Shown piece after piece: positions 1,763 through 21,380 of a DNA stretch of 56,086 bases; the first letter of the stretch is position 1, and each line of letters starts with the position of its first letter. Below the pieces are notes generated by a model. The model was not told the DNA's origin. It did not search any database and saw only the letters and a list, made by a program, of their open reading frames with translations. Location of the stretch: positions 1-56,086 of the forward strand of contig JALOMO010000027.1 in the NCBI GenBank assembly GCA_025455395.1, given 5' to 3'. Source of the stretch: Bacteroidales bacterium. GTDB taxonomy: Bacteria > Bacteroidota > Bacteroidia > Bacteroidales > VadinHA17. The position numbers and the translations under genes are program-made.

Positions 1763-1790
1763 GTAGAGACGTTGCATGCAACGTCTCTAC
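1763..1790. repeat. Perfect 28-bp GTAG-type REP-like palindrome between convergent genes
   Basis: GTAGAGACGTTGCATGCAACGTCTCTAC is its own reverse complement and starts with the GTAG tetranucleotide of REP elements. Confidence 0.8.
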
Positions 1791-1820: not shown

Positions 1821-3974
1821 TTAATTCAGCCTGTTGATTGTCCGCACCGCCTCCAGTCTCACCGGATCGGAGAAACCAGCGGTGTCGGCTATGATCTTAT
1901 TGCATGTCTCAATTATCACCTGCCTGTTGTAGCTATGGCTGAACCACCCGAACGCCTCAATAATAGCAACCTCTATCTTCTCTCCGGGCGCTGTGAGGAG
2001 ATACTGACACAAGGGTTCTATCGCAGGATGGTATGTAAGATTGCGCATTGCCCTGATCTCGAATATCTTGTTCTTTTCACTCTCCTTTTCGCCCGTAATT
2101 GTTACAATGGCATCTGCACATGATCCGGTCTTCCTTTCAATGTCTGTCAGTACCCGCCGGTAAATCTCACCGAGATAGTTTGCAGTATCGATACCTGCAA
2201 ATTGCTTTTCAAGTTCATTGACCAGGAGGTCCTTATCAAAGTATGCCAGGGCATCTGATGCCTGGTAACTGACTCTTTTTGAAATATTAGGGTCGGTAAC
2301 CGCCCTGATCAGCGCTGGAGCGAGCCTGGGATCACCCGATTCCTGGCAATATACTGCTGCGTGACGCCTGATCAGCTCATATGAGTCATCAAGAGCTGCT
2401 GCGGTGACCTTTATGAAGTTATCATCACACAACTGTGCCAAAAGCTTCATCGCAGTCATACGGGTGACGGAATATGGCGAACTGAAGTACTTCTCAGCCA
2501 GGAGATTGCTTATGGAGGGGTACCCTGACACCTTCAGCGTCCACAATGCCCAGCTCTGTACATCAGGGTGAGGATAATCAGCCAATTTCAGCAGCTTTGA
2601 CTCTTTGCCTGCTGCAGACATCATCTTTTCAGCATTGAGTCTCATGTCAGAGGAGGCAAATCTGAAGGTGGGGTCACCGATGATATGAGTTTCAAGCAGG
2701 CAAACCATCCGGTTCCACTCCCCTACCCTGAGGCCGTAAGAGAGAAGTCCGACCATCTCATCAGGGAATTTATCCTGAAGTGAGTTGACGGTATTGGCCT
2801 GTGCTGCGATGGTCCGTCCCGGTCCGAAAACGTAAGCTCCGGAAATGAATTCATCTGTATGAAATGACCCGTTGAAACAGGCATCGAACATGATAAATCG
2901 TGTCTTGATGTCATATTTCATGACATCAGCAGATATGATATCCATATCAGCAAACCATGCTGAATCCTTTTCTGTCTGCGTTTTTTCATTGGCACCACGG
3001 AACCATGAATCAGGGACATCAAGCCATTCTGTATACTTTGCCTTTGCCTCTGTTGTATCCTTAACACCTCTCACCTTTGAGCGGAGATAGTACTTAATGC
3101 TTTCAATATTCTGCTGAACGCCGTTAGCCGCCTGCTCAGAGCCGGCCAGCTGTGCGTCGGTTGATCCATGGTGATGCAGGAGAGCTATATCAATATTCTC
3201 AGTTGTCATGGTTGACAGAATCCTGTTTTTGATATGCTCCTCGAAAGTATAATCAATGTATTCGAGTCCGTTATCCTGCCTGTTCAGCTGAGGGAACTGC
3301 TGTAGCAGTGCGGCCTTTTCATCCATCCTTGCAGTCATTGATTCTGAATTATACCCATGCCCCGCAAAAAAGAGTACCTCATCTACAAGATCAGGATTTC
3401 TGTGTGCCTCCACCACTTTTAGGAGATAGGCTTTCAGTCTTGAGCCATCGACGTCGCCTGGAATACGAATTCGTCCTGTATATATATCGGGTGTCATCCT
3501 CTGAGGCGACTCCGGCCTCAGGCTATAATAGAAATAGAGGCCATTTGTGTCTGCCCTGAGGTAGCTGAACAGGAGGTCAAAATCCTCATAAAACCTGTCA
3601 GAGGGTACAGATGAACGATGCCACGGGTACCTCTCCTGGTCCATCTTGAAGGCAGAAGTAAGGTGTTGCGCATCGCGCAGCATCGGGACAGGTATGTCGC
3701 CGATGAATACCGCGCCTTCAAAAGCACTGTTCTTCCTTTTCATACTCTCAAGCAACGTCCTGATTGAATCAGGATGATGCCACTTGTCCTCAACAATGAC
3801 TGCTTCAAGCCCTTCAGACCTGAGAGTGGTTGCATAGAGATTGATCTCATCAGACGCTGCAGCCATGGAATGACTGTCAGCAAGTATAATAAATTCAGTT
3901 CTGCCTGTCTGTGAAAAAACTACCGGGAATGCAGATAAAGCAAGCAGTATAAGTAAGTATTTCGTTTTAGTCAT
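1821..3974 (-). CDS. Secreted/periplasmic peptidase C25 (gingipain)-like protein with C-terminal HEAT-like repeats
   Basis: Signal peptide. C25-like motifs GAVFIGDIP, SDRFY, PDIYTGRI, HHHGS, FDACFNG and IIGDPT. Helical repeats follow (AALDDSYELIRRHA, LIRAVTD). Confidence 0.7.
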   Translation of the reverse strand: MTKTKYLLILLALSAFPVVFSQTGRTEFIILADSHSMAAASDEINLYATTLRSEGLEAVIVEDKWHHPDSIRTLLESMKRKNSAFEGAVFIGDIPVPMLRDAQHLTSAFKMDQERYPWHRSSVPSDRFYEDFDLLFSYLRADTNGLYFYYSLRPESPQRMTPDIYTGRIRIPGDVDGSRLKAYLLKVVEAHRNPDLVDEVLFFAGHGYNSESMTARMDEKAALLQQFPQLNRQDNGLEYIDYTFEEHIKNRILSTMTTENIDIALLHHHGSTDAQLAGSEQAANGVQQNIESIKYYLRSKVRGVKDTTEAKAKYTEWLDVPDSWFRGANEKTQTEKDSAWFADMDIISADVMKYDIKTRFIMFDACFNGSFHTDEFISGAYVFGPGRTIAAQANTVNSLQDKFPDEMVGLLSYGLRVGEWNRMVCLLETHIIGDPTFRFASSDMRLNAEKMMSAAGKESKLLKLADYPHPDVQSWALWTLKVSGYPSISNLLAEKYFSSPYSVTRMTAMKLLAQLCDDNFIKVTAAALDDSYELIRRHAAVYCQESGDPRLAPALIRAVTDPNISKRVSYQASDALAYFDKDLLVNELEKQFAGIDTANYLGEIYRRVLTDIERKTGSCADAIVTITGEKESEKNKIFEIRAMRNLTYHPAIEPLCQYLLTAPGEKIEVAIIEAFGWFSHSYNRQVIIETCNKIIADTAGFSDPVRLEAVRTINRLN

Positions 3975-3977
3975 GTT

Positions 3978-5549
3978 TCAGAAGGTCAGGCCTAAAGTGG
4001 CATCAAAATAATAACAGGTCATTGTTTCTGTTGCATCACCTATGGCAAACACATAATCAAACCTCGGCGCAATATAAAAGGATCTTACAGTCTTGCCGGA
4101 GGTGAATCTCTCTATTCTGGCCGTGATAATGCCTCTTAACAGATCAGCCTTAAGTACATCAAAATCACTATAAACCATCTCCGGGATACTCTGTGTCTGC
4201 TCCTTGAATGAGAGTGTGGATCCCAGGTTTTTCCTGTAACTCACCTCAGCTCCTGGTGTTATTCTTGTGTTACCAGAAGCGAAAACCCTTTTATAAAAGG
4301 CTGAAACAGCAATATCCATTGTCTCCATTTCTCCGTAAGTCTGGAGAGGATAATGGCCTGAGGAGTAGTATCCAAAATTAATATTACCGCCCATATCGCT
4401 TTTGACATCATATCTCCCTATAAATGTCGTATACCTGTAACCGGCATTCACATGGACATCAGTTATTAGATGCTTGTCTTCTATCCAGCTTACAGTAGCA
4501 AGAGAATCATAAGAATAGGTCGGCTTCCTGATCGGGTATAATCGCTGAATAATTTCATCGCCGCTCATACCTGATAATGTTCCGTTCAGGCTGATTGTGT
4601 GAAATGCTCCTGAGGTGCCAATGCGCAGTATGTCTGAGAAAATAAGGGAGTTGGTCGTTGCGATACCGTCTATAAGTCTGTATGATGAGCCCGATCTGGC
4701 CTCATCCTGCACATGGTTAAAAATAAACTCGGCAGTGTTAACCAGGTTTCCTGTTTCATAAGATGCCTGGATACCTGCCGAGTAACCGGAACCACTGTAC
4801 AGCTCGGAATAGTATGTAATGTCAGGTTCATCCTTATAGTATCCTAAGCCTTGCAGGATGAAAAGGTCCTGTGACCAGTTGCCTTCAACAGAGAATGATA
4901 TTTCATTGCTTGAGGTGAATACAGAGCCTGTAATACCGAGTTTCAGCTTACCCAGATCGTATATCAGGCCGGGGGTAATCTTAAGTGAGGTGATGTTGTT
5001 TTTATTCCTGGGGTCTTTTTGTTTGGATCCAAGTGCCGCATTATATTCTGCTCCTACCGCAACAAACAGCCGGTCGCTTACCCTCATGCTTGCCTCCCCT
5101 GCGAGATCAAATCCCTCCTTAATCTGTGTACCCGGGACTGTATCACCGATGATATACGGATTAAGGCTGTTGAACATCATGGTGCTGTTATATATGAGGC
5201 CGTCATAATGATCATTCTGATAACCGAATGCTCCGGAGAGTGAAAGCTTTCCAAGTTTCATATAGCCTTTTGTTTCAGCATAAAACGAGGAGGTGGTTTC
5301 AGGTTGAATATAAAGTCTGATGTCATCTTGTTTATGGCTGTATCCTGCCTGTGCAAGGTTCAGGTTGCTCATACTGAATGTTGAGAGCGCTGCCGGGTTA
5401 GAGGTGTTTGTCCACGGAGCAAAAAGGGTAAGGTCTTCAAAGAGCCTGCTGCCTGCAGTAATGGCAATTGTATCATCAGCCATTGCAGGTCTGGTAAAAC
5501 TGACCATGGCAAGGAGCATCAGAAGCGCCTGTTTCAGGAATTTTTTCAT
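3978..5549 (-). CDS. Outer-membrane beta-barrel protein (DUF6850-like)
   Basis: Signal peptide, N-terminal NPAAL motif, amphipathic beta strands, DPRNKN motif, and a C-terminal barrel signature ending in F (DATLGLTF). Confidence 0.65.
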   Translation of the reverse strand: MKKFLKQALLMLLAMVSFTRPAMADDTIAITAGSRLFEDLTLFAPWTNTSNPAALSTFSMSNLNLAQAGYSHKQDDIRLYIQPETTSSFYAETKGYMKLGKLSLSGAFGYQNDHYDGLIYNSTMMFNSLNPYIIGDTVPGTQIKEGFDLAGEASMRVSDRLFVAVGAEYNAALGSKQKDPRNKNNITSLKITPGLIYDLGKLKLGITGSVFTSSNEISFSVEGNWSQDLFILQGLGYYKDEPDITYYSELYSGSGYSAGIQASYETGNLVNTAEFIFNHVQDEARSGSSYRLIDGIATTNSLIFSDILRIGTSGAFHTISLNGTLSGMSGDEIIQRLYPIRKPTYSYDSLATVSWIEDKHLITDVHVNAGYRYTTFIGRYDVKSDMGGNINFGYYSSGHYPLQTYGEMETMDIAVSAFYKRVFASGNTRITPGAEVSYRKNLGSTLSFKEQTQSIPEMVYSDFDVLKADLLRGIITARIERFTSGKTVRSFYIAPRFDYVFAIGDATETMTCYYFDATLGLTF

Positions 5550-5575
5550 TTTTAAGGGTTCTGTTAAAGTACTAA

Positions 5576-5613
5576 TACCATACCAGGTGATCTAAGTATC
5601 ACCTGGTATGGTA
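5576..5613. other. Intra-operon stem-loop (16-bp perfect stem, 6-nt loop)
   Basis: TACCATACCAGGTGAT-ctaagt-ATCACCTGGTATGGTA, just downstream of the lipoprotein stop codon. No strong U-tract follows. Confidence 0.75.
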
Positions 5614-5628
5614 ATGTGCCAAACCTTC

Positions 5629-6840
5629 CTAATCAACCACTGTCCGGTTAATAAAAGGTGTCGGAGTCCAGTCACCAATAAAGTCATTAAATGAATTATT
5701 GGTGTCTTTATAAATAGCTTTCCCGTCAAGTACTTTAGCCACCTTGCGTCTTACGCTCTTACTGCCGTATATTCCTGAGGTGCACCATACCATTCCTGCA
5801 TCAATCGATGTTGGAAGTCTTTTATACCTGTCAGCCTCATTTGCCCTGTTTATATCAACACCGTCAATAACCCAATCTTTATGAACCATTAAGTACTTAA
5901 TTGTTGATGTGGTTCCAGGTTTTGTCATGAAATTATTGGGGTCAGCCGCGAAGGCTGCATGGTTGAGTCCGGTAGGTAATCTGAAGATTATCAATGCTGC
6001 ACCATTGACAGAATGGAGCCAGTCAATCATTGTTGCAGAGGTGGTGTACACAACAATCATGTTAGTTGATTCAGGTGAATCGGTATCTTTTCCGGGAGCT
6101 TCGATGAATGCCTCAAACGGTGCGTCACCCATGTTTACAGGCGAATTCGGGTTCCCAAGCGGGTCAGTCTGGTGGTCAATGGCATCATGCGCAAGTACCA
6201 CGCTTGTCCTGGGCTGAATGGGATACTGCTGACCTGTCCCGGGGAACATCAGGGTATGGAATGAAACCGGTAACCTGTCCATAAGTGAACCGTCCGGATT
6301 AACCCAGGCTGAGGGTGTGGTACCAATTGGCTCAAGTACTCCTATACATAATCCGTCAAGGTAAAGAACCCCGTCACTGTTATTATAAATTTCATGGAAC
6401 TGGTCTGAGTAATAGTTTGAGCCGGTTGGTGTTTTTGAACCGCTGTAATAGACCTCCTTGATTACAAGCCCGCCAGATTTTGAGCTGGCTATCATATTAA
6501 TGTCCCAGTAATTAATGTCATAATTAACAGTAAGATTTTCAGTTATGCCGTTGAAATAGAATTCATCCGTTTCGTGAGAGGCAGAAATGGTATAGATGCC
6601 TTCTTCGAGTGGAACCTTAACTGTACCATTTTCTTTTGTGGTGACTATCGTCTCCTGTCCGTTCAGTGTATTCTGGATTGTTACTTCAAGGTCCGCAACC
6701 CCGCTAATACCGTACCCGACCGGGTAGTAGACCATTATTAATACATCATAGAGCTTGGCGCCCTCTTTCTGACATGAGGGTAGCAATGCCATCCCGGCCA
6801 CCAGGATCATTGCCAAAACAGTTAACTTTTTCATAATCAT
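5629..6840 (-). CDS. Surface lipoprotein (DUF4876-like), partner of the TonB-dependent receptor
   Basis: Lipobox LPSC followed by QKE. Motifs LVIKEVYYSGS, DQFHEIYNNSD, WVIDGV, DAG and DTNNSFNDF. The start may be 6834. Confidence 0.75.
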   Translation of the reverse strand: MIMKKLTVLAMILVAGMALLPSCQKEGAKLYDVLIMVYYPVGYGISGVADLEVTIQNTLNGQETIVTTKENGTVKVPLEEGIYTISASHETDEFYFNGITENLTVNYDINYWDINMIASSKSGGLVIKEVYYSGSKTPTGSNYYSDQFHEIYNNSDGVLYLDGLCIGVLEPIGTTPSAWVNPDGSLMDRLPVSFHTLMFPGTGQQYPIQPRTSVVLAHDAIDHQTDPLGNPNSPVNMGDAPFEAFIEAPGKDTDSPESTNMIVVYTTSATMIDWLHSVNGAALIIFRLPTGLNHAAFAADPNNFMTKPGTTSTIKYLMVHKDWVIDGVDINRANEADRYKRLPTSIDAGMVWCTSGIYGSKSVRRKVAKVLDGKAIYKDTNNSFNDFIGDWTPTPFINRTVVD

Positions 6841-6849
6841 AGATATTAG

Positions 6850-9738
6850 TTAGAATTTGAATTTAATTTCTGCTCCAAAGTAAAGAGGCTGGTTCTTCCT
6901 TGCGTATACCTCCGGTGCACCGCCCCATACTTTAAGCAGCGGTGAGTAGTTGGTTATATTGTTTGCATAGAATGAGAAATTTACCATGTCTGTTATCTCC
7001 TTCGTAAGCTTGAAGTTCAGAACGAAGTAGGGCGGATAGCCGGTCTCAAGAAAATACCAAGGGGTATTGTAGTTCTTAATCATATCTGAGTATGGCTTCG
7101 TGACAGCGAGGGCAGGGTCAAAATCATGATATTCCATCTTCCTGTCATAGTAGCCGACGGGGTTTACATACTTCGGATAAGTTCTGTCTGTAAGAACATC
7201 ATCTACAGGCTCTTCAGTATAGAACAGCGGATTACCATCAGTATCCTCATAAACATTCATCCCGCAGTCTACCCATATAATCTGGGCTGTGACAGAAGCC
7301 ACCATCCGGAGCTCCTTGATATGTGTTATGGTACGTATGTTTGTATTAAACCTCTTATCAACTGAGCCGTTCCCGCCGGGATAAACTGCCACATAGGGAA
7401 ATTCCTTCCCGCCAATGGATCCTGTTGAAGGCTTCTGAAGGTATGTATTGGCAGTCTGTCTCTTTACATACATGTAGGCACCGTCGATTACAAATGAGGT
7501 TCTGAGTGCCCTGACTGTTCCAAGATCGACTGTAAACTCTACACCCTTTTTAGTGACGATGTTATCATTCGAAGGATATGTAAAGCTGACAAACACAGTG
7601 TCCTGAGTCATTGGTACCTGCACTTCTGTTCCGGTACCCGGATCTATATAAAAGACTCCTGAGCCCTGCACCAGGTAAAGGTCAAGGCCATTCTGGACAG
7701 GTTGTGTATACTTGTTGTAAATGAAGTTTTCATAATAGGATTGAAAATCAAACCCATTCTCCATTCTTTCAGAATATAATGTTACTGACACATCGGTGCC
7801 TCCCAGTCCGAAGTCAATTCCTGCTTCAATTTTTTCATTCACAGCAGGCTCAAGTGATGTATTCCTTGGATTCTCAAAGATCTTTGTCGTAACAACAAAT
7901 GTTCCGCTCTGGGCTACGGGATCGTAGTAACTCAGACCCGTTTTGTCCCAATATGCCCGGTCAGGATAAAGGTAGAGCAGTGAAGGTGCCTTTGAGAAGA
8001 AGCCGTAACCTCCTCGCAGGGAAAGTTTATTGAGGAATTTGCTGCCACCGTCAAATAATGTATAACGCAGGTTGAACCGCGGATCAAGCATTGTGGTCTC
8101 CTCGGCTGAGGTGAATAACCCCTCGGGTTGTACATTGGTGAACCTGACGCCTGCCTGAAGATCAAGCTTTGTCTGCCCGATGGGGATGTTCAGATTCTCT
8201 TCAGCATACATCGCCAGCTGGCCGAGTGACGGGATATCCTTGTAGGACCTGGGTCTGGCATCGCTGCTGGAGGTTGGTGACGGAGGCCTGGAGAGGTCAT
8301 AGATTCTTCCTTCACCATTATTCCCGTATAATCTCCAGTCTATCCCTGCTACAATGTTGTTAAGCATGCTTCCGATCTTGAAGGACCTGTTTCCTGAAAG
8401 CTTACTGTCAAAATAATATGGTTTTCCGTCAATCGTAAGGTCGCTCAGGTAGTTTGAGGGTAGTATGGGTACCTCATTTTCACCGGGTTCGAGTGCAACA
8501 GGCTGGGGCTGTGCCCCTGATGGGATTTCCTCCAGTTCAAGCTGGTGGCCAACCTGATGCTGAATATTACCTGATACCATGAAATTTAAATTGGTGAAGA
8601 GCAGCGAATTAAGCGCCCATTTACCGTTCAGGTTCATTGATAAGCCTTTCTCGTTTGCCTCATACTCTTCAATCTCAAGCATGTCAGGATCATTCTTGCT
8701 TATATCGATTGTCTGCGTTGCCCTGGTTGAAAGGCTGAGGGTTAAAGGTCTTCCTGTCTTGAAAAAGGTGTTGTTCCAGATCAGTCCTGCATTTAACCTG
8801 TTGAAGGTCTTGTACCTGACCCTTATATCATCAAAACTCTGTGTAAAGTCAAAGTCGAGGTTGATAATCCCGGCTTTCTGGCCCAGACTGAATCCCTTTC
8901 CGGTATAAAACTGTTTTATCTCCGGGTCGATCTTAATCTTTGCAGTGAATGGTGTCTGTCCCTTTTTCAGGGTGACCTTCACGGCTCCGCTCAGCATATC
9001 GCCGTTCTCAACTCCGGCTATACCTCTTACTACTTCAATAGTCTCAATATTATCAACCGGTATCTGCCGCACATCTGTTCCGCCGGAGGCGGTAGTGGCA
9101 AATCCGGCCGTAATTCCCGTTGCAACAGTGTTAGTCTTCAGGAATTGCATGTTGGCGTCGTTTGAAACGGGCGCCCCGTCGACAATCAGTAGTGTTCCAA
9201 GGCTGGCCATATTGTCGGCCCCGTACCCGTCTTCAGTAATAATCTCCCTGATGGTCAACTGCTTAGGCCTTGAGAGATCAGGGTTCTGGGTTATTTGCCC
9301 CGGCAGCAGCTGCATCACATCTGACAGGTCAGTAGGCTGGACATGCTGTATGGCGGCCTGCTCAATCATTGATCCGGAAGCGAGTCTCCTGCCCTCTTTG
9401 GCGGTGACAACCACATCATCAATAGCCAGTGTCGCCTCGTCAATCAGGATATTTACCTTTTCCGAATCGAGGGGGAAGGAGACACGTTCCTCACGCTGGA
9501 TAAAACCAAGGCATGAGACAACGATAGTATATGTGCCGGACGGAATATTCCGAAGTTCAAAATCTCCTGCCTCACTTGTCGTTGCCCAGATATTCAGCTC
9601 CTTTATTACCACCGTAGCCATCATGACCGGCTCATTGGTAGTCTTGCAGATTACCTTACCGTTCATCGAATGCTTCGTCTGGGCAGTTAGTGTCAGCCCG
9701 GCAAGAAGCATAATCAATATTGAAAGTAGCTTTTTCAA
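6850..9738 (-). CDS. TonB-dependent receptor with N-terminal carboxypeptidase-regulatory-like domain
   Basis: Likely TTG start at 9738 (MKKLLSILIMLLAG signal peptide). TonB box-like DDVVVTA, plug motifs DVMQLLPG and IETIEVVRG, C-terminal FGAEIKFKF. Confidence 0.9.
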   Translation of the reverse strand: MKKLLSILIMLLAGLTLTAQTKHSMNGKVICKTTNEPVMMATVVIKELNIWATTSEAGDFELRNIPSGTYTIVVSCLGFIQREERVSFPLDSEKVNILIDEATLAIDDVVVTAKEGRRLASGSMIEQAAIQHVQPTDLSDVMQLLPGQITQNPDLSRPKQLTIREIITEDGYGADNMASLGTLLIVDGAPVSNDANMQFLKTNTVATGITAGFATTASGGTDVRQIPVDNIETIEVVRGIAGVENGDMLSGAVKVTLKKGQTPFTAKIKIDPEIKQFYTGKGFSLGQKAGIINLDFDFTQSFDDIRVRYKTFNRLNAGLIWNNTFFKTGRPLTLSLSTRATQTIDISKNDPDMLEIEEYEANEKGLSMNLNGKWALNSLLFTNLNFMVSGNIQHQVGHQLELEEIPSGAQPQPVALEPGENEVPILPSNYLSDLTIDGKPYYFDSKLSGNRSFKIGSMLNNIVAGIDWRLYGNNGEGRIYDLSRPPSPTSSSDARPRSYKDIPSLGQLAMYAEENLNIPIGQTKLDLQAGVRFTNVQPEGLFTSAEETTMLDPRFNLRYTLFDGGSKFLNKLSLRGGYGFFSKAPSLLYLYPDRAYWDKTGLSYYDPVAQSGTFVVTTKIFENPRNTSLEPAVNEKIEAGIDFGLGGTDVSVTLYSERMENGFDFQSYYENFIYNKYTQPVQNGLDLYLVQGSGVFYIDPGTGTEVQVPMTQDTVFVSFTYPSNDNIVTKKGVEFTVDLGTVRALRTSFVIDGAYMYVKRQTANTYLQKPSTGSIGGKEFPYVAVYPGGNGSVDKRFNTNIRTITHIKELRMVASVTAQIIWVDCGMNVYEDTDGNPLFYTEEPVDDVLTDRTYPKYVNPVGYYDRKMEYHDFDPALAVTKPYSDMIKNYNTPWYFLETGYPPYFVLNFKLTKEITDMVNFSFYANNITNYSPLLKVWGGAPEVYARKNQPLYFGAEIKFKF

Positions 9739-9745
9739 GGTACCG

Positions 9746-10993
9746 TTATTTGTTGTTTGGCTGTTTCCGTACAGTGAACTTGTTGGGGAAAAACTGAGTT
9801 GCTGCAAGGCCATAAATACCTGTGACGCCGACTATCAGCAGGTCAGGGATGTTGGCCATTAAAGGCCATCCCCTTCTTCTGATAAGAACAATAGCAATGA
9901 TCAGCGCGACAAGATTGACTGTCAGCCACCTGAAACCCGGCGATGGCCTGAAGAAGAAATTAATAAAAGCCGAGTTGTCATCCTTCAGCCTTACCTCGAA
10001 GGGGAAGATGGATGCAAAGGCTTTACCTTCTGGTCTTTCATAGAGACCTTCCCACTCCTCGCTATGTGTACCCACAACGTTATACATGTCGTCTACAGCT
10101 ATTGCCTGGTACCAGTTTTCACCCAGAACAGTTATACATTTATTGAAGAGGTCTGCATTTATTCTGAAAACATGAATATCCGGATTAAACCCGTCAACGG
10201 GAAGTCTCTGGAGATCATAGACCTCATCCATAACTACAAAGATACCCTGATTTCGCGTGAAAACATAACAATAGAACTCCCTGCTTCTCAGGTCAACTGC
10301 CTCAATGTATACAATATCCAGTTTTTCATCGGTTTCAATCCTGACGACGTATGGTTCTCCCTTTATCATTTTGATATGGAATAATGAGCCCTCAGAGTCA
10401 GTAACGAAGTATCCTTCGTCGACAGATTTCCGGGTAGTCGGAAGACCGGCGATGATCTTTGCAGGGAAAACGAAATCCTCATCAATCAGGGCGTTTGTGA
10501 AAAGTACACTCTTCTCTTCGTTTATCCTGTTCGTTTTTGCAACAATAAACTCCATCCTTTTCTCAATCCGGAAATAATCATCTGGCATTGCCAGATTGAC
10601 CTTGCCACTCTGTGATTCAAGCATCGGGTAGAGTGTCGGTACCGGCGAGTTAAGTTTACGGGGTGTATAGCGGTAGAATGAGGAGGCCCTGCTGATTGAG
10701 GGAGCCTCCATCTTGATGCCGTTGATAGAATCAGGCATTTCACCGTCTGCCATCAGTTGACGGAAATATAAAAAGGGAAGCACTCTTTCATACTCATCGG
10801 AAGTGAACTCCTTGCCAGAGGGATCGGTGCGCCTGCTTCCGTCAGCAATAACAAAATCCTGTGTTATACAGCTGTAGTATATCTGAGGCGATCTGGGCAC
10901 CTTTTCAAAGACAGTCCAGTAAAATGCCGGAAGAGCTATTGAAGCAACAAGCACGGCTGTCAGAACCAGTATATATCTGCTAACTTTAATCAT
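9746..10993 (-). CDS. Inner-membrane protein with large periplasmic domain (DUF4857-like)
   Basis: N-terminal TM helix, soluble middle region (LPFLYFRQL, YPMLES, EGYFVTD) and two C-terminal TM helices. Abuts the upstream membrane-protein gene. Confidence 0.65.
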   Translation of the reverse strand: MIKVSRYILVLTAVLVASIALPAFYWTVFEKVPRSPQIYYSCITQDFVIADGSRRTDPSGKEFTSDEYERVLPFLYFRQLMADGEMPDSINGIKMEAPSISRASSFYRYTPRKLNSPVPTLYPMLESQSGKVNLAMPDDYFRIEKRMEFIVAKTNRINEEKSVLFTNALIDEDFVFPAKIIAGLPTTRKSVDEGYFVTDSEGSLFHIKMIKGEPYVVRIETDEKLDIVYIEAVDLRSREFYCYVFTRNQGIFVVMDEVYDLQRLPVDGFNPDIHVFRINADLFNKCITVLGENWYQAIAVDDMYNVVGTHSEEWEGLYERPEGKAFASIFPFEVRLKDDNSAFINFFFRPSPGFRWLTVNLVALIIAIVLIRRRGWPLMANIPDLLIVGVTGIYGLAATQFFPNKFTVRKQPNNK

Positions 10994-10994
10994 C

Positions 10995-11663
10995 TTACAT
11001 CTCCCCTTTTCTAAATCTGTAACCAGAGAACAGTACTACAAAACTCAATAATAACGTGATAAGTATCAGTAACGGCAACACCGGCCTGAATGCCTCGATA
11101 GCCGCACCTGTATAAAAGATTGCAACAAAACCTGCGGCAACAATTGTATAAAGTCCGCGGAATATCCAAACCGGCTCCAGCAGTATAAGGGCAACAAGGA
11201 AATAGGTAGCCATCCCTCCCAGGAACCAGGGAGTCACTGTAACAAGTGATGGGTTGATCATATTTGACGGGAAGAAAATTGCGCTTCCCGCAGTGAAGAG
11301 ACCCATAACAATCAGGAAAAGAATAAGCAGCACGGCTGCTCCGAATGCATGCATCCAAATAAGAATTCCATTCTCTGAGACAGGCAGGTGAAAAGTCAGC
11401 TTTATTCTCTTATTGACCGTCTCAGGTATATATTGGGCGATAGCAACAGCCAGGCCAATGGCAAAGGGCAGGAACTTGAGTATCCCGAAGTATGCTGAAC
11501 CCCTGAAGAGGAATGAGTACCAGTAGTTGGCAGCATCAACAAACAAGATGTCATGCCTCACCTTCAGGAATATATTTATCAGGGCCAGGAGGCTCAGCCC
11601 CAATGAGATCAGAATAATCAGCCTGATCTTTATCCATTCTTTGTATATAATCGATTTCAACAT
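10995..11663 (-). CDS. Multi-pass membrane protein, putative ABC permease
   Basis: YKEWIK N-terminal motif as in ABC-2 permeases, KLTFHLP motif, about 6 hydrophobic segments. Follows an ABC ATPase. Confidence 0.65.
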   Translation of the reverse strand: MLKSIIYKEWIKIRLIILISLGLSLLALINIFLKVRHDILFVDAANYWYSFLFRGSAYFGILKFLPFAIGLAVAIAQYIPETVNKRIKLTFHLPVSENGILIWMHAFGAAVLLILFLIVMGLFTAGSAIFFPSNMINPSLVTVTPWFLGGMATYFLVALILLEPVWIFRGLYTIVAAGFVAIFYTGAAIEAFRPVLPLLILITLLLSFVVLFSGYRFRKGEM

Positions 11664-11678
11664 ATGTTCCAGTTTTTC

Positions 11679-12563
11679 TTAATATTTACGTGTAAGGCCT
11701 ATGAAAGCATCCTCCAGTGACATCTTAACCTCCTCGAAGCTATTATAGGCGATGCCTTTCATTTTAAAAAACCCTTTTACCTCCTCTTCGGTTGAATAGG
11801 TATAAAACTCAATCTTGTCCTTCACCCTTTCAATATTCACCGCCATTCCGTCAAAGTCAATAACAGCATTGTGATCGGCAAGTGAAATATTGAACTGTCT
11901 GAAGGTGTTCATGAACTGGTCAATCGGCTGTTGCGCCAGAATCCGGTTGTAATCCATGATCATGACGTCATCTATCAGTCTTTCCATATCCTGTATAATA
12001 TGAGAAGTCACAAAGACAGTTTTATGCTCTGCCTTGGCATACTCGCGCATATAGTCAATGAAGAGCCTGCGATAGCCCGGGTCAAGTCCCATCGAGAAGT
12101 CATCAAGTATCAGCAGGTCGGGGTTTTGTGCCAGGATGAGCCCCAGGGCGACCTGCGAACGCTGGCCGCATGACATGCTCGATATCTTCTGCTTCGGTGT
12201 TACCTTCAGCTTTGACATCAGTTCCCAGTAGGGGGCGCTGTTCCATCCCTCGTAGAAACCGGAATAAAACTTTTCGATCTGATGAATATTCATAAAAGTA
12301 TACTGGACATGTCCTTCGATCAGGAATCCTATTCTTCTCTTTGTCTCAGGAGTGAGAAGCTGTGTGTTCTCGCCGTAAATGAGACACTCTCCGGCACATG
12401 GCTGCAGGAATCCGTTGAGAATGTTTATGGTCGTTGATTTTCCAGTCCCGTTTTTACCCAGCAGACCCAGTATTTTGCCCTCTTCCACATTGAAGCTCAG
12501 GTTTTCATAAACCATCTTCTTTCCATAATAGTGGGTCAGGTTTTTACACTCAATTGCGTACAT
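11679..12563 (-). CDS. ABC transporter ATP-binding protein with atypical motifs
   Basis: Walker A GKNGTGKST, signature MSCGQ, Walker B LLILDD, H-loop TSH. Confidence 0.9.
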   Translation of the reverse strand: MYAIECKNLTHYYGKKMVYENLSFNVEEGKILGLLGKNGTGKSTTINILNGFLQPCAGECLIYGENTQLLTPETKRRIGFLIEGHVQYTFMNIHQIEKFYSGFYEGWNSAPYWELMSKLKVTPKQKISSMSCGQRSQVALGLILAQNPDLLILDDFSMGLDPGYRRLFIDYMREYAKAEHKTVFVTSHIIQDMERLIDDVMIMDYNRILAQQPIDQFMNTFRQFNISLADHNAVIDFDGMAVNIERVKDKIEFYTYSTEEEVKGFFKMKGIAYNSFEEVKMSLEDAFIGLTRKY

Positions 12564-12570
12564 TGGAGTA

Positions 12571-12612
12571 GTTATCAGTTGTCAGTTATCGGTTATCGGT
12601 TGTCGGCTGTAG
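12571..12612. repeat. Degenerate heptamer tandem repeat (GTTRTCR-like x6)
   Basis: gttatca gttgtca gttatcg gttatcg gttgtcg gctgtag. It overlaps the stop codon at 12586-12588. Confidence 0.75.
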
Positions 12613-14520
12613 TGTGCCCTGCTCCTGGAAGGAGAACGGGTTGGCAAGCTTGCCTGTACGTCCGTCAGAATAATGGAAGAGAAGGGTATCAGAGTTGATA
12701 GAGGCGTAGATCCTTTCAACCGTAGTCATTGAATCAATGAATATTACTGATCCGACCTCGGTACCTGCCGAGTCAAGTGAAGTTTCAAACCCGACTACAC
12801 CCTTATCATTTGAAAGGTGGCTGATAAGATAGCTGTAGCGTGCTTTCAGTGAGGCATTTGCTCCCATTCTGAGAACGTAATGCATGATCACGTCTGGAGA
12901 ATACTTTGAAAATCCGTTGAAATGTGACACCGTGGGAGTGAACATCTGCTCTGCATATTCTCTCTTTGATATTCTTGCTGCAGGCTCTTCAAAGGTAATG
13001 ACCTTATATGGCAGCTTGACGTTGAAGTCATTGCCGTTGGATGTAAAGCTCAGGTTCTTCGACTCTATCGCATTTACCAATGTCTCCTTGTCAGGCTCAC
13101 TGCCGGCAGGGAAATATATCCTTATGATGACCGGGCACGCGAATTCGCTCTGGAAACCACATGCTTCACTCTTCTGATCTAGCAGGTGCTGAAGGTATGT
13201 AGCATCCAGCGGATCAAAGAACTTATCGATTGTAAGTGTATAGTAAGTCACTGAGTCGACTTCTTTGGCAACACTCTCAATTATCCTCTTCTCGGGAACA
13301 AACAGAAGCTTTTGAAGCTTCTCATCATTATAGAGAGTTGTATCGTACAGGATGTGCACACTATGGCTGGCAACATATGTTGAAACACCGAATACACCGT
13401 TTACTTTTCGCATCTGGTTGGCAAAAGCAGTAGAGCTGCCGAAACATTTGATGTTTTTCAGTCCGCTCATTTCGAATACTCCTGCAGATGCAATCTGCTC
13501 AGGCGTACCCCATTTCTGGGCTATTGTTGGCAGCTCAAACAGAGTACCGGCAGTAATACCCAGGATTATCAGCAGACCGAGAACCAGACCCGGCAGCCAC
13601 TTCATGTTTTTCCTGTTTATCTGCAGAGTGTTTTTCTCGGGGCAGGCATAGAGACAGTCACCGCACAGAGTGCAGTCTGTATGGGTTACCTTAACCATAT
13701 TTGCAACATCAATTCCCTGGGGACACTTTTCAGAGCACAGGCCGCAGTCAATGCAGCTTTCGGTGTTGCGCGTGATATGCACCGGATCAGGCCTCACCTT
13801 TTTCATCCTTAGAATCTCAAGGAGGTAGCCTCCGGCAGTTATCACTATCAGAGGATAGAGATATGGAATATCAAGGCCAACCAGGAGGAGAATGACGTAT
13901 AATGCCATTACGCCAAGGAACCAATATGAGAATTTGAAAATTGCCGAGAGGGCTCCGAGCGGACAGAGATAACGGCACCAGAAGAGCCTCATGAAGAAAG
14001 AACCAAGCACAAGGGCTACGATAGCCAACAGCGCCCACAACAGATTCACGTCAGAGTCAAATCCTGATGCAACCGCATAATAGGGATCAAATTTCTTGCA
14101 GAAGAGCTCGCTTGATTTCAGCGTATAATAAAATGTAAGAAACAGAAGTGCATATTTGAAGAAACGAAGGGCATAATCGACCCAGCCTGTCGGTGTGATC
14201 CTTACCTTTAACTTATCGCCGAGCTTGCCTATCCACTCACTGATTGTGCCCAGCGGGCAGATGTATCCGCAGAATAGCCTTGAGAATAGCACTATGCCTA
14301 TAAAGAGCACAACGCCCATCATTATCTGGGTGCTTGTCATTGAACAGGACAGGGAGTCCATGGTAAGGTAGCTTCCCAGTGCCTGTATCCCGCCGAAAGG
14401 ACAATAGGCCTCGAAGTCAGGAGCATATGCTTTGTCAAAGAGAAGGCGGAAGCCCATAAAAGTAAGGATACCGATAATCGCAAATTGATATATCAGTTTG
14501 TACCAGTTTTGTTTTTTCAT
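12586..14520 (-). CDS. NapH/MauN-like 4Fe-4S membrane protein with C-terminal extracytoplasmic HMA-like domains
   Basis: AYCPFGG, CGYICPLG and CRYLCPLG motifs. Two ferredoxin motifs, CIDCGLCSEKCP and CTLCGDCLYACP. A TM helix is followed by an HMA-like region (SGLKNIKCFGSS...VNGVFGV). Confidence 0.8.
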   Translation of the reverse strand: MKKQNWYKLIYQFAIIGILTFMGFRLLFDKAYAPDFEAYCPFGGIQALGSYLTMDSLSCSMTSTQIMMGVVLFIGIVLFSRLFCGYICPLGTISEWIGKLGDKLKVRITPTGWVDYALRFFKYALLFLTFYYTLKSSELFCKKFDPYYAVASGFDSDVNLLWALLAIVALVLGSFFMRLFWCRYLCPLGALSAIFKFSYWFLGVMALYVILLLVGLDIPYLYPLIVITAGGYLLEILRMKKVRPDPVHITRNTESCIDCGLCSEKCPQGIDVANMVKVTHTDCTLCGDCLYACPEKNTLQINRKNMKWLPGLVLGLLIILGITAGTLFELPTIAQKWGTPEQIASAGVFEMSGLKNIKCFGSSTAFANQMRKVNGVFGVSTYVASHSVHILYDTTLYNDEKLQKLLFVPEKRIIESVAKEVDSVTYYTLTIDKFFDPLDATYLQHLLDQKSEACGFQSEFACPVIIRIYFPAGSEPDKETLVNAIESKNLSFTSNGNDFNVKLPYKVITFEEPAARISKREYAEQMFTPTVSHFNGFSKYSPDVIMHYVLRMGANASLKARYSYLISHLSNDKGVVGFETSLDSAGTEVGSVIFIDSMTTVERIYASINSDTLLFHYSDGRTGKLANPFSFQEQGTLQPTTDNR

Positions 14521-14547
14521 GGTCTGAATATAAATTGTAGTTATGGG

Positions 14548-14883
14548 TTAGTATGCAGAGTAAAAATGTCTGAATAGCTGATCCTGCATATTATCAGGGT
14601 TAAGGTGGTGGGTATCCATAAGTTCCTCGAGGGCACTTTTAAGTTGCGAATGATTACCCGGTGCCAGGTTTTTATAACTCTGAACCCCGACAAGAACACC
14701 AAGAGAGGAATAAACAACAAAAATCATTGCGATAAGAAGTACCCGTGAAGATCCTGACATAGCCTCAAGGCCGCCTCTCTTCTCAACAGCTATCCTTTTC
14801 ATGATATCGTCGGCAAAGTATTCCGGAGCTGTTATCCTCTCCTTTCGAATCTCACCTGATATTTCTGATATAAAGTCTGACAT
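14548..14883 (-). CDS. Small single-TM protein, putative anti-sigma factor
   Basis: N-terminal APEYFADDIMKRI motif resembles anti-sigma N-termini. One TM helix. Lies in an ECF sigma locus. Confidence 0.55.
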   Translation of the reverse strand: MSDFISEISGEIRKERITAPEYFADDIMKRIAVEKRGGLEAMSGSSRVLLIAMIFVVYSSLGVLVGVQSYKNLAPGNHSQLKSALEELMDTHHLNPDNMQDQLFRHFYSAY

Positions 14884-14967
14884 TGTTTTGATTTTACTTG
14901 TTAATTAATTAACATGTATATGCTAAAAAGACAACTTTAATAGTATAAACTTGCGGAACAGTGATAA

Positions 14968-15495
14968 TTATTTTCCGATGTTGTTAATGCGTTCTCTCCT
15001 TGGACAATCAATTTTATTGCAGGTCTTGCACTGATCCTCAAGCTGCATCATCTGCTTGAATATAAGTGTCAGCTTCTGCTGCTGGGCCTCGTTGCAGATT
15101 GCCTTCAGATTTACGAAATAGTCGCTTGTATGTCTTCTGAGAGATGTGTTAAGTGTCCCGATTTTTTTTGCCAGGCTGTCAAGCACTGCCGGATCTGATT
15201 CGGGGCGGGCAAGCTCTTCTATCATTGCAACGTTGGTCTCGCACAGCATATCAAGCACGAGGTTGTAAGTCCTGAGCGTACGGTCGTTTTCAACAAGCAC
15301 CTTCCGGTACTGCTCACCATCCAATCCCAGTTCAGTACGGAGCATCTCCATTGAGTTCATAGCCACCGGGTCAGTTATCTTACCGCCGGCAGATGATGAT
15401 CTCATAATTAAAAAGGTAACAACGGCAGAAGTGATGATGAGCAGCAGCATCAGATTGAGCCATAATAAAATCCTGTTGAATCTTTCAGGTATCAT
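14968..15495 (-). CDS. Spy/CpxP/ZraP-like periplasmic protein (putative metal/stress sensor)
   Basis: N-terminal TM helix, LGLDGEQ and ICNEAQ (LTxxQ-like) motifs, helical body, C-terminal CKTCNKIDC. Overlaps the sigma stop codon (ATGA). Confidence 0.65.
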   Translation of the reverse strand: MIPERFNRILLWLNLMLLLIITSAVVTFLIMRSSSAGGKITDPVAMNSMEMLRTELGLDGEQYRKVLVENDRTLRTYNLVLDMLCETNVAMIEELARPESDPAVLDSLAKKIGTLNTSLRRHTSDYFVNLKAICNEAQQQKLTLIFKQMMQLEDQCKTCNKIDCPRRERINNIGK

Positions 15496-16097
15496 ATCTT
15501 AAGATTTTTGTTTCGCAATTGATCCGTGGAAGGGGGGCAACACTTACGTTTCAGGGTTGCCCTAGCCCTGAATATCAATGATTCTACAGAAGACAATGAA
15601 AGGTCGAGAACCTGGCATATCTCCTTATAAGGCATATCTTCATAGTGATGCAGGATAAATGCCTTCTGTTGCCTGGCAGGCAGCGCGGCTACCGCCCTGG
15701 CAAGCATCTCCTGCCTCTCGGCTGATTCAAGTGTCTCACCGGGATGATCATCAGACATAGGTGCCGTGAGACTTCCTGTAAGGTCACCATGTCCGAAAAG
15801 GGCCTCAATCTGAACAAGTGAACGAAAAAGAATATTCTGTGATTTCCTGAGGTGGTTAATTGACTTGTTAAGCGAAACCCTGTAAAGCCAGTAAGATATG
15901 TCATCCTCAGCTCTCAGGACTGCGGCTGACCGGAATGTTTCAATAAAGACCTCCTGCGATATGTCCTCAGCATCTTCACGTGATCGCAAAACCTTATAGC
16001 AAGTATTAAGCACCAGGTCCTGATACTTGCATATCAGTTCACGCATGGCACTGTTATCACCCCTGATAATGGCCTTTATCAGCTCCTGGTCACTCAT
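15492..16097 (-). CDS. ECF RNA polymerase sigma factor
   Basis: Region 2 DAEDISQEVFI and YWLYRVSLN. Region 4 LPARQQKAFIL...YKEICQVLDLSLSSVESLIFRAR. Confidence 0.92.
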   Translation of the reverse strand: MSDQELIKAIIRGDNSAMRELICKYQDLVLNTCYKVLRSREDAEDISQEVFIETFRSAAVLRAEDDISYWLYRVSLNKSINHLRKSQNILFRSLVQIEALFGHGDLTGSLTAPMSDDHPGETLESAERQEMLARAVAALPARQQKAFILHHYEDMPYKEICQVLDLSLSSVESLIFRARATLKRKCCPPSTDQLRNKNLKI

Positions 16098-16595: not shown

Positions 16596-16775
16596 TATAT
16601 GGTTCTTTAATGTGAATATTCAACCCCGTACAAAAATAATCAATAATGGGAGATCTTGACCCCTTCGGGAATACCTCTTAGTGGCACAAATGAATGATGA
16701 ATCTTTAACTATCCTTATAAAGGGTAGCAGAAAAAAACTTGCGGTCCGGAATAATGTTTTATAACATATAAAATA

Positions 16776-16804
16776 GCAGTGACGCCCTGTAGAGGCGTCA
16801 CTGC
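16776..16804 (-). terminator. Rho-independent terminator of the efflux operon
   Basis: 11-bp stem GCAGTGACGCC/GGCGTCACTGC, followed by TATTTTAT on the minus strand, about 20 nt after the last operon gene. Confidence 0.75.
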
Positions 16805-16822
16805 AACCTGTTCATTTATGTC

Positions 16823-21371: not shown

Positions 21372-21380
21372 TAATTATTA

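Follow-up and report, generated by a model that had tools for sequence, protein, structure and literature searches.

In this study, a stretch of 56,086 nucleotides from a Bacteroidales bacterium of the VadinHA17 lineage (GenBank assembly GCA_025455395.1, contig JALOMO010000027.1, positions 1 to 56,086), hereafter called the window, was analysed, and we observed that it carries a conserved twelve-gene envelope operon of sediment Bacteroidales, in which a TonB import cassette is joined to a gingipain-fold peptidase, an ABC-2 type ATP-binding cassette (ABC) module, a membrane iron-sulfur protein (hereafter the FeS protein) and a sigma/anti-sigma switch (Table 1). Eleven open reading frames (ORFs) lie on the minus strand between positions 1821 and 16097, and the co-orientation, small gaps (no more than 84 nt) and partial overlap that a preliminary description of this DNA had reported for them were reproduced; a twelfth gene, at 16161-16595, had been missed by that description. 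In transcription order from the gene of the extracytoplasmic function (ECF) sigma factor, the junctions are a 4-nt overlap followed by gaps of 84, 27, 22, 15, 1, 7, 9, 79 and 3 nt. The 7-nt gap, between the genes of the DUF4857 protein and of the TonB-dependent transporter (TBDT), assumes a TTG start at 9738 for the latter; as listed, its ORF spans 6850-9813, and the ATG at 9813 would overlap the DUF4857 gene by 68 nt, so that the TTG, which gives an ordinary MKKLL signal peptide, is more likely. This tight packing supports a single unit. The earlier domain calls mostly held when checked with hidden Markov models (ECF, Fer4_5/dicluster, ABC_tran, Plug/CarbopepD_reg_2, DUF4857, DUF4876, DUF6850 and HEAT_2), and the locus was rightly described as not being a classical polysaccharide utilization locus, as neither SusD nor any glycoside hydrolase family was matched in any of the 11 proteins in Pfam or NCBIfam.

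Terminator-like hairpins were found at the two ends of the unit only, with none of note in the 22-27 nt gaps flanking the FeS gene. The upstream hairpin, with a 12-bp stem and a T-run at 16804-16776, closes the preceding RND/PG0541 operon, and the downstream one is likely the end of the unit. The spacer in front of the lipoprotein gene measures 227 nt, and 63 nt separate this gene from the ECF gene. About 35-45 nt before the lipoprotein ATG lies a TAttTTTG element, resembling TAnnTTTG, which we take to be the Bacteroidetes -7 consensus; the sigma-70 consensus that was also scanned is ill-suited to Bacteroidota. A shared ECF promoter dyad (a 5-mer and a 4-mer with a spacer of 15-18 nt) was sought in front of 21 lipoprotein genes, over 220 nt each, and none exceeded shuffled sequences (observed maximum 6, shuffle maxima 4-6).

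Table 1. Genes and other features of the twelve-gene unit, in transcription order, with the basis of each assignment
Feature	Position	Strand	Basis or remark
Intergenic region	16596..16822	-	Terminator-like hairpin and TAttTTTG element
144-aa lipoprotein	16161..16595	-	First gene of the unit; lipobox AASC
ECF (group 4) sigma factor, 201 aa	15492..16097	-	Sigma70_r2, Sigma70_r4_2, TIGR02937
LTXXQ/CnrX-like periplasmic protein, membrane-anchored, putative sensor	14968..15495	-	Weak PF13801
111-aa single-pass anti-sigma factor (predicted)	14548..14883	-	Position and predicted sigma complex
644-aa membrane polyferredoxin (FeS protein)	12586..14520	-	Fer4_5, 4Fe-4S dicluster
ABC ATPase, ABC-2 (GldA/DrrA/NodI-like) kind	11679..12563	-	ABC_tran 78.7 bits
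222-aa polytopic membrane protein, likely ABC-2-type permease	10995..11663	-	Atlas feature matches only
DUF4857 membrane protein	9746..10993	-	PF16149 E 9e-85
TBDT, non-SusC, 962 aa	6850..9738	-	Plug and CarbopepD_reg_2
DUF4876 surface lipoprotein, putative TBDT lid	5629..6840	-	PF16215 E 3e-41
DUF6850 outer-membrane protein, signal peptide, presumed beta-barrel	3978..5549	-	PF21012 E 1.4e-64
C25-like (gingipain-fold) domain ~26-442 and HEAT-repeat domain ~445-717 (C25/HEAT protein)	1821..3974	-	AlphaFold2 model, fold comparison
12-bp-stem hairpin	1763..1790	.	Where the C25/HEAT gene and an EF-G paralogue converge

The coherence of these genes was assessed in 80 loci anchored on the FeS protein, obtained by a scan of species-representative genomes, and in 151 genomes sampled from one order. 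With the core defined as the ABC/DUF4857 and TBDT/DUF4876/DUF6850 genes, and the triad as ECF sigma, sensor and anti-sigma, it was observed that the triad occurs in 36 of the 80 FeS-anchored loci, of which 34 carry the core, none lacks it, and two are cut at contig ends; FeS identity among the loci with triad and core is 50-94%. A resistance-nodulation-division (RND) pump accompanies triad and core in 18 loci, is absent in 13 and is undecided in 3, and among the decidable loci without the triad, with or without the pump, the core is present in 4 and absent in 22; the remaining 20 loci are cut at contig ends. The association of triad and core spans at least two families and includes the cultured Prolixibacteraceae Maribellus maritimus (5E3, locus L099) and Draconibacterium aestuarii (Z1-6, locus L102). 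The order in Prolixibacteraceae is lipoprotein-ECF-sensor-anti-sigma-FeS-(BNR/T9SS propeller)-TBDT-DUF4876-DUF6850-(C25/HEAT)-ABC-permease-DUF4857, with no RND pump. The association is kept despite rearrangement between families, in which the TBDT cassette is either preceded or followed by the ABC genes, and some loci have an inserted BNR gene. The 144-aa lipoprotein, which gave no Pfam or NCBIfam match and no usable Atlas match and which has two more invariant cysteines in its alignment (C60 and C106), was found in 3 of the 151 genomes, adjoining FeS and core in all three; since it also heads the ECF/FeS block in related loci, it is counted as the twelfth member of the unit. We tentatively read the operon as a TonB-dependent, protease-associated import pathway for iron, or another redox-active metal, on a protein or peptide carrier, an interpretation which we hold to be plausible, if somewhat short of probable.

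At the outer membrane, the TBDT displays a Plug domain (PF07715, 37.2 bits against a cut-off of 23.9) and an N-terminal CarboxypepD_reg-like domain, while no Pfam barrel model matched at E<=0.01, so that its assignment as a barrel rests on length and homology, related proteins being named TonB-dependent receptors in the literature (PMC10434189). No SusC model was among the NCBIfam matches listed, and the sole match to solved structures by sequence was plug-only, to CirA (E 0.003). For DUF4876 a solved homologue exists, 4q1z, labelled 'putative lipoprotein' and apparently unpublished, which matches residues 33-391 at E 2e-35, and no solved relative by sequence was found for DUF6850 or DUF4857. 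In one preprint, DUF4876 proteins are predicted by AlphaFold-Multimer to be TBDT lids, leaving an opening of about 20 Å, with the proximity of DUF4876 and TBDT genes conserved in 59-81 genera (10.1101/2023.03.17.533168). DUF6850 comes after DUF4876 in most of the cassettes. A second, partial cassette was observed on contig C152 (4291 bases) of genome G000, with an identity to the first of 96% at the TBDT end, 82% in DUF4876, 81% in DUF6850 and 80% in the first 222 aa of the C25/HEAT protein; it could be a paralogue or derive from a co-binned related strain, the contamination of this metagenome-assembled genome being 4.29%.

The last gene of the unit had been called gingipain-like, and the fold upheld this call where the Pfam score did not. 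HEAT_2 was matched, and Peptidase_C25 (PF01364) reached 16.2 against a cut-off of 23 (E 0.0064), with a few homologues carrying a precomputed PF01364 match; a sequence search of solved structures returned designed and natural HEAT proteins only. The C25 assignment therefore rests on predicted structure and not on the Pfam score. The AlphaFold2 model, from an alignment of 30 homologues (41-83% identity), has a mean predicted local distance difference test score (pLDDT) of 83.4 and a pTM of 0.80, and in an exhaustive structural comparison its residues 26-442 matched RgpB with Z 28.4 (root-mean-square deviation, rmsd, 2.7 Å over 291 residues) and Kgp with Z 26.5, followed by separase (Z 14.2) and PorU (Z 14.1); Foldseek returned 1cvr at E 4.2e-5. 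All 36 sequences compared, which reach down to 36% identity, share H268, H269, G270, D364, C366 and G369, and H206 and H267 are each conserved in 35, as is the pair H206-G207. The HHHG motif follows strand 263-266 and DAC, with A365-C366, follows strand 360-363, which are the positions expected for a clan-CD dyad and mark a candidate catalytic His-Gly/Ala-Cys pair; a residue-by-residue match to RgpB could not be read, and loop 206-210 has pLDDT <50. Compared with the gingipains and PorU, the catalytic-domain fold and the His-Gly and Ala-Cys at strand ends are shared, but sequence identity is 15-17%, the prodomain, Ig-like domain, adhesin domain and C-terminal domain (CTD) of the type IX secretion system (T9SS) are absent, HHHG and DAC are separated by a helical insert some 65 residues long, and the protein is fused to HEAT repeats. 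Having a signal peptide and neither a lipobox nor a T9SS CTD, it is predicted to be periplasmic and not secreted as the gingipains are. A reading of the HEAT domain as a deoxyhypusine-hydroxylase-like di-iron site was rejected, as the resemblance is one of fold only (Z 13.4), with no repeated His-Glu among the invariant residues.

The C25/HEAT gene was found in 7 of the 151 genomes. It had been singled out as a notable addition to this locus, a view that did not survive, because the gene regularly takes the fourth place in a cassette that stands by itself: TBDT-DUF4876-DUF6850-C25/HEAT stands with no ABC module beside it in all five such cassette loci in 5 other genomes. This four-gene form resembles the product list of BT1933-39 (PMC10434189). 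In the 34 FeS-anchored loci with a DUF6850 match, the next gene is C25/HEAT in 22, ABC in 6, another gene or none in 5, and a contig end in 1. In three loci (L120, L130 and L132) an M16 peptidase stands beside the same cassette. These are 951-aa insulinase-type proteins (L120:7045-9900 and its homologues) next to TBDT-DUF4876-DUF6850, and L132 has the M16 gene together with two C25/HEAT genes. Between FeS and TBDT, 13 of the 80 FeS-anchored loci, of the Prolixibacteraceae type, encode a BNR/Sortilin/Ycf48-like beta-propeller with a T9SS C-terminal sorting domain (e.g. L099:11970-14339 and L035:13711-17476), and these may be surface capture proteins.

At the inner membrane, the ABC ATPase (PF00005, 78.7 bits) has PmtA, GldA (TIGR03522, E 2.4e-37) and DrrA as its best NCBIfam matches, all below cut-off. 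The 222-aa permease gave no Pfam or NCBIfam match; its Atlas feature matches, which serve as a lead only, are to its own kind, 'ABC-2 family transporter', at 0.98, and at 0.90 to clusters with ABC2_membrane_4/2/5, in which 19-39% of members carry ABC2_membrane models. The DUF4857 protein has an N-terminal transmembrane (TM) segment, a large extracytoplasmic domain and C-terminal TM segments. DUF4857 was detected in 17 of the 151 genomes, and in a set of 18 neighbourhoods anchored on it, from 16 other genomes, the ATPase, permease and DUF4857 genes occur together in all 18 and usually adjoin TBDT, DUF4876 and DUF6850 in either order. SufB/SufD-type Fe-S assembly genes adjoin one DUF4857 core locus (L025:6616-8070 and neighbours). 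The module is built like GldA/GldF/GldG, which we take to be an ABC-2 transporter of Bacteroidota with an ABC-2 ATPase, a six-helix permease and a third membrane protein whose large extracytoplasmic domain lies between terminal TM helices, but neither the permease nor DUF4857 matches GldF or GldG at family level. Such relationships also bear on a very improbable alternative, in which the ABC-2 genes, DUF4857 and DUF6850 export a peptide or a lipid-linked product that the C25/HEAT protein processes, as the C25-family sortase PorU does for T9SS cargo, and that the TBDT retrieves, the whole serving export and recapture or envelope maintenance. The exporters and GldA among the best ATPase matches, the ABC-2 look of the permease, PorU among the fold matches and the T9SS-CTD proteins embedded in related loci speak for it; yet the unit holds no biosynthetic genes, the outer-membrane cassette with C25/HEAT stands without the ABC module in the 5 genomes given above, and RgpB and Kgp match the peptidase twice as well as PorU does.

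The FeS protein contains two CX3CP motifs in a NapH-like Fer4_5 region (48.8 against a cut-off of 22), two CxxCxxCxxxCP motifs for 2x[4Fe-4S], with the dicluster domain above cut-off, and one more TM helix; it has more than 2600 homologues of similar length. Its best NCBIfam matches (NapH, NosR, HgcAB-like and CcoG) all lie far below cut-off, with 53.1 against 213 (TIGR02163) and 40.6 against 234 (NF007013) placing it outside NapH/MauN, and 24.8 against 316.7 over residues 252-294 only placing it outside the CcoG cupric reductases (TIGR02745), so that the likeness in domain order to the latter is an analogy; the sequence search of solved structures returned ferredoxin modules only. From the order of hydrophobic segments and charged loops we infer that the clusters would be cytoplasmic and the C-terminal domains periplasmic, by analogy with NapH and CcoG, whose clusters presumably lie in the cytoplasm and whose C-terminal domains in the periplasm. 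In the AlphaFold2 model the membrane/FeS N-terminal half has pLDDT <50 and was not interpreted, and the acceptable part, residues 333-640, forms three beta-alpha-beta-beta-alpha-beta (ferredoxin-like) domains. Thus the Fer4_5 region and the four motifs are shared with the NapH/NosH/CcoG polyferredoxins, and the additional TM helix and extracytoplasmic C-terminal domain with CcoG, but the protein falls below all cut-offs for NapH, NosR and CcoG and the three C-terminal domains are unique to its family.

These C-terminal domains had been described as similar to heavy-metal-associated (HMA) domains, which head the fold list for residues 421-520 (Z 7-8.2, rmsd 2.1-2.9 Å over 66-79 residues), a Z of 7-8 for these domains being in a range also reached by unrelated models. 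The description reduces to a resemblance of ferredoxin-like fold: the C-terminal 324 residues show no PF00403 match at E<=1 and no MxCxxC, and the loops concerned read KCFGSS and FFDPLD. This speaks against copper or another thiophilic metal as cargo or signal, in which the polyferredoxin would be a CcoG-like cupric reductase, the ferredoxin-like domains degenerate metallochaperones and the CnrX-like protein a sensor of that metal. The CcoG-like order of parts (Fer4_5 membrane region, 2x[4Fe-4S], TM helix and extracytoplasmic domain), the HMA domains at the head of the fold list, the five invariant cysteines of the sensor, the HH in the tail of the anti-sigma and recently described copper operons with TBDT and PepSY_TM proteins (PMC13038864; PMC12914433) would suit this explanation. 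We nevertheless consider it quite unlikely, given the CcoG score, the missing MxCxxC and PF00403, and expression data for homologous cassettes that come only from iron depletion (PMC10434189).

The two sets of loci were also compared. PepSY_TM_like_2 and/or a 228-aa partner occur in 12 of the 18 DUF4857-anchored loci, neither of the two FeS-bearing loci among the 18 has them, and they are missing from all 80 loci anchored on FeS, so that PepSY_TM-like proteins and FeS complement each other here. Characterised PepSY_TM proteins are periplasmic ferrisiderophore reductases (PMC13038864), and non-SusC TBDTs with lids in Bacteroides carry small cargo, e.g. cobamides and enterobactin (10.1101/2023.03.17.533168). 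Both observations, together with the absence of C25/HEAT from some full loci, suit the uptake of a small-molecule metallophore with reductive release by the polyferredoxin or PepSY_TM protein, the ABC-2 module recycling or expelling the ligand and C25/HEAT being an accessory that cleaves a peptidic chelator or matures a component. We regard this as unlikely, as peptidases of two unrelated families (C25-like and M16) are repeatedly encoded next to the cassette, the predicted lids leave a wide opening (10.1101/2023.03.17.533168), and the T9SS-secreted BNR propellers suggest large surface cargo. With regard to its make-up, the system fits a modular scheme: the outer-membrane trio is constant, and a periplasmic peptidase (C25/HEAT or M16), the ABC-2/DUF4857 module and a membrane redox partner (PepSY_TM-like protein or polyferredoxin) are optional. 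The window is its fullest form, with a dedicated ECF circuit.

As regards this circuit, the sigma factor scores above threshold for Sigma70_r2 (PF04542, 51.2 bits; cut-off 24), Sigma70_r4_2 (PF08281, 66.6; 25.7) and TIGR02937 (101.7; 42.9), and its sigma-2 and sigma-4 domains stand alone, which places it in ECF group 4. The neighbouring protein had been described as Spy/ZraP-like with a CxxC tail. The cysteine-rich tail stood, whereas the family score did not, Metal_resist (PF13801) reaching 21.4 bits against a cut-off of 29.2; at E<=0.01, PF13801 matches 6 of 21 orthologues (best E 1.3e-6) and LTXXQ 3 of 21. Its alignment displays an N-terminal anchor, two LxxQ-type motifs and five invariant cysteines, including a C-terminal CxxCNKxxC. 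Homologues of a looser kind occur in 52 of the 151 genomes, and the full-length kind in two only (G000 and G107). Between sensor and FeS, an ORF of 75-135 aa with a single TM helix is found in 33 of 33 loci that have sigma and sensor; a segment before the helix and a periplasmic ALxEL..HHL motif are conserved in its alignment. An N-terminal HxxxCxxC occurs in 4 of 21 aligned orthologues, and not in the protein of the window, and the best score for the zinc-binding anti-sigma family (zf-HC2, PF13490) among four orthologues is 14.4 against a cut-off of 22.2.

The prediction of a complex between the sigma factor and the 111-aa protein gave an ipSAE of 0.84, the best control giving 0.45; of 80 solved complexes 58 attained this mark, and of 110 mismatched pairs 2 did. 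The pLDDT of the partner is at least 75, contacts agree to at least 98% across runs, and its cytoplasmic residues 1-34 touch sigma residues 15-55 and 125-187; this result may partly reflect likeness to solved sigma/anti-sigma complexes. The protein is accordingly predicted to be an anti-sigma factor that clamps the ECF sigma, and the earlier call of a putative anti-sigma gained from both this score and the conserved position. The arrangement recalls CnrYXH-type signalling, which we take to consist of an ECF sigma, a short anti-sigma and a periplasmic metal sensor of LTXXQ fold; here likewise an ECF sigma accompanies a membrane-anchored periplasmic protein with weak PF13801/LTXXQ similarity and a single-pass protein of about 110 aa predicted to wrap sigma by its short N-terminus. 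It differs in gene order, in the sub-cut-off PF13801 score, in the CxxCNKxxC tail of the sensor, in the ZAS-type HxxxCxxC of 4 of 21 orthologous anti-sigmas and in being tied to an uptake-type system and not to an efflux pump.

With reference to the literature, loci of similar content are known from three species. BT3625-33 and BT1933-39 of Bacteroides thetaiotaomicron, PG1019-22 of Porphyromonas gingivalis and PIN17_RS07775-90 of Prevotella intermedia hold, by product names, a TBDT, DUF4876, a HEAT-repeat protein, an ABC ATPase and DUF4857 (PMC10434189), the orthology to the window genes being judged by family names and not by the sequences of those strains. They differ in lacking the ECF triad, the 144-aa lipoprotein and the polyferredoxin, BT3625-33 having two PepSY_TM proteins. 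Under iron depletion, PG1019-22 rose 20.8- to 214.5-fold, BT3625-33 36.7- to 128-fold and BT1933-39 3.5- to 7.4-fold, and the TBDT operon (BT1938-9, PG1019-21 or the PIN17 cassette) was up in all three species (PMC10434189). The PG1019 protein co-varies with HmuY and flavodoxin (PMC12119571), and PG1019/PG1020 was still called an uncharacterised transport system in 2026 (PMC13096392). The earlier statement that the receptor/lipoprotein/ABC core recurs in Bacteroidales without an established function agrees with what has been published, where it is called uncharacterised (PMC10434189, 10.1101/2023.03.17.533168, PMC13096392). Searches on the DUF names and BT/PG locus tags only found no description of the ECF/FeS variant; the core cassette and its iron induction in homologues are already known, and the ECF/FeS twelve-gene form would be new.

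Considering these parts together, we find that the best reading of the operon is a Bacteroidota analogue of Fus-like, protease-associated TonB import. In such a pathway, a DUF4876 lid on the TBDT would capture the cargo at the surface, with DUF6850 as a constant third partner, and TonB energy would carry it into the periplasm, where the soluble C25-like cysteine peptidase would cleave the carrier while the HEAT domain holds substrate or partner. The polyferredoxin, taking the place that PepSY_TM-like reductase-type proteins have in sister loci, would donate electrons by which the metal or cofactor, once set free, is reduced or passed on, and the ABC-2 ATPase, permease and DUF4857 protein would form an energised inner-membrane module. 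Expression would be set by the ECF sigma, held by the single-pass anti-sigma, with the cysteine-rich LTXXQ/CnrX-like protein reading a metal or redox signal. The gene set with its conservation and modularity, the gingipain fold with its conserved motifs and the predicted sigma/anti-sigma interface are results of this analysis, and the iron response of homologous cassettes is taken from the literature; in the scheme itself we infer the cargo and its metal, which way the ABC module works, how electrons flow and what signal induces expression. The analogy had been drawn with Pectobacterium Fus, and it is one of architecture, in which it was strengthened by the M16 peptidases beside the same cassette in 3 loci, whereas the window itself has no M16 gene. 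As in Fus (FusA/FusC) and YddB/PqqL, a TBDT is encoded together with a periplasmic protease and an inner-membrane ABC-type transporter; Fus-type systems are linked to iron limitation, and variants in which other proteases or redox enzymes replace FusC have been described (PMC6793856). The differences are that Fus belongs to Proteobacteria, that the TBDT of the window matched neither solved FusA nor solved YddB by sequence at E<=0.01, that the peptidase is a clan-CD C25-like cysteine peptidase with HEAT repeats instead of an M16 metalloprotease, and that the window adds the lid lipoprotein, DUF6850, an ABC-2 module with DUF4857, the polyferredoxin and the ECF switch and has no TonB paralogue in the unit. 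The second, unrelated peptidase family beside the cassette, as in Fus/PqqL systems, would favour protease-associated import, and so would the induction of homologues by iron depletion.

Several observations weigh against this pathway. Characterised members of the ABC-2 kind mostly export or transduce force, and the module, being of this kind, has no substrate-binding protein in the unit. C25/HEAT is missing from some full loci, as it was not found in G107 with the query used and ABC directly follows DUF6850 in 6 loci, and a CnrX-like sensor whose tail is rich in cysteine would suit starvation no better than an excess of metal or redox stress. The iron data come from homologous cassettes under other regulators and with a chelator, so that iron as cargo is not proven; in B. 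thetaiotaomicron, mutants of either DUF4876/TBDT pair showed no clear phenotype in 519 fitness experiments (10.1101/2023.03.17.533168). None of the sequencing runs listed as holding the locus is on record as RNA. Among the 16 genomes of the DUF4857-anchored set, FeS is linked to the core in only 2 (G115 and G107) and the triad in only 1 (G107), so that the core mostly stands without FeS and ECF. In turn, FeS occurs without core or ECF in the 22 loci mentioned above, mostly of one 20-row clade, and in 5 of 5 such genomes checked (completeness not given) no DUF4857 or DUF4876 was found anywhere. Since FeS persists in core-less genomes, it is likely to have a function of its own. Its independent persistence and the ABC-2 nature of the module are the main points against a linear pathway.

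The FeS-only loci share the flanks of the window, with RND/PG0541 upstream and an EF-G paralogue downstream. In 20 related loci the FeS gene directly follows the RND operon, with no ECF or core. In a quick IQ-TREE phylogeny of FeS, from which 16 of the 80 rows were dropped for a partial match or a stop, the FeS-only loci fall mostly into one clade and the deeper branches carry ECF and core, which points to the loss of the two flanking blocks with FeS retained. The same facts could be explained by a mosaic, in which the lipoprotein-ECF-sensor-anti-sigma-FeS genes would answer redox or metal stress of the envelope and would share a chromosomal site with independent uptake genes, those of the ABC and TBDT cassettes. 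Every module occurs alone as well (FeS without core, core without FeS/ECF, the outer-membrane cassette without ABC, and LTXXQ-type sensor homologues, in 52 of 151 genomes), and no shared promoter motif was found upstream of the 21 lipoprotein genes. We judge this improbable, however, because the triad stands without the core in 0 of 34 decidable triad loci, the lipoprotein occurs only with FeS and core (3 of 3 genomes), the association survives rearrangement of gene order between families, and the gaps of 22-27 nt around FeS hold no notable terminator-like site. The claim of one conserved unit is therefore sustained for triad and core (34 with, 0 without, 2 cut), but not for the dedication of FeS to the system (22 core-less loci; 5 of 5 genomes). 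On balance, the interpretation offered in the preliminary description is partly supported: its conserved unit, gingipain fold, anti-sigma and Fus analogy stand, and its HMA domains, FeS dedication and C25 novelty do not. As to induction by metal or stress, which it proposed, published data point to iron starvation, and do so for homologous cassettes and not for this ECF-controlled variant.

Protease-associated import also has a bolder form, which we find rather doubtful, namely the first cysteine-protease-based import of whole proteins. The lidded TBDT and a second outer-membrane partner would bring into the periplasm a metalloprotein, e.g. an Fe-S or haem protein of detritus or of cells nearby; there the gingipain-fold peptidase with its HEAT clamp would dismantle it and the polyferredoxin would free the cofactor; ABC-2/DUF4857 would energise the transfer, and the CnrYXH-like ECF circuit would read the metal or redox state. 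If true, 'protein piracy' of the Fus type would also exist in a second phylum, where it is built of non-homologous parts.

Regarding the surroundings of the unit, the operon upstream (16823-23325, minus strand) encodes TetR, an outer-membrane efflux protein, a membrane-fusion protein, the RND pump and a PG0541-family P-II-like protein. A heavy-metal Czc system was rejected for this pump, since the multidrug model scores 739 bits against 463 for CusA/CzcA, both below cut-off, and since the TetR gene, the PG0541-family partner, the strong closing hairpin and the absence from Prolixibacteraceae loci speak likewise. The EF-G paralogue (16-1728, plus strand) converges on the end of the unit, and it also adjoins FeS in core-less loci (seen in L060), which indicates a conserved chromosomal site at which the two flanking blocks are present or absent. 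Farther upstream, a protein that has a PKD domain and a type IX secretion signal of the CHU_C kind (23583-24545, minus strand) indicates that the organism has a T9SS. DNA nearly identical to 6850-16840 was detected in metagenome runs from wetland, soil and sediment that belong to 12 studies; at least half of the sampled words are present in 7 runs, and one may come from the sample of origin. Run X20 (share 0.06), guessed to be RNA, gave 16 short contigs, for the most part 95-99% alike, that cover parts of the locus (DUF6850, TBDT, the sensor/anti-sigma junction, and the ECF and lipoprotein genes with the junction between them); since this label is guessed and the contigs do not show transcripts, nothing was drawn from them.

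The TBDT/DUF4876 cassette is among the loci most strongly induced by iron starvation in P. gingivalis, P. intermedia and B. thetaiotaomicron. Our analysis provides a parts list for it, in which a lid and another outer-membrane protein are joined by a clan-CD peptidase predicted to be active, by an ABC-2 module and by redox partners that can replace one another, together with a modular map of the parts that travel together and cultured, non-pathogenic carriers of all twelve genes. Should imported cargo be what the peptidase acts on, then protease-associated import would be a general Gram-negative strategy, built at least twice from unrelated proteases.

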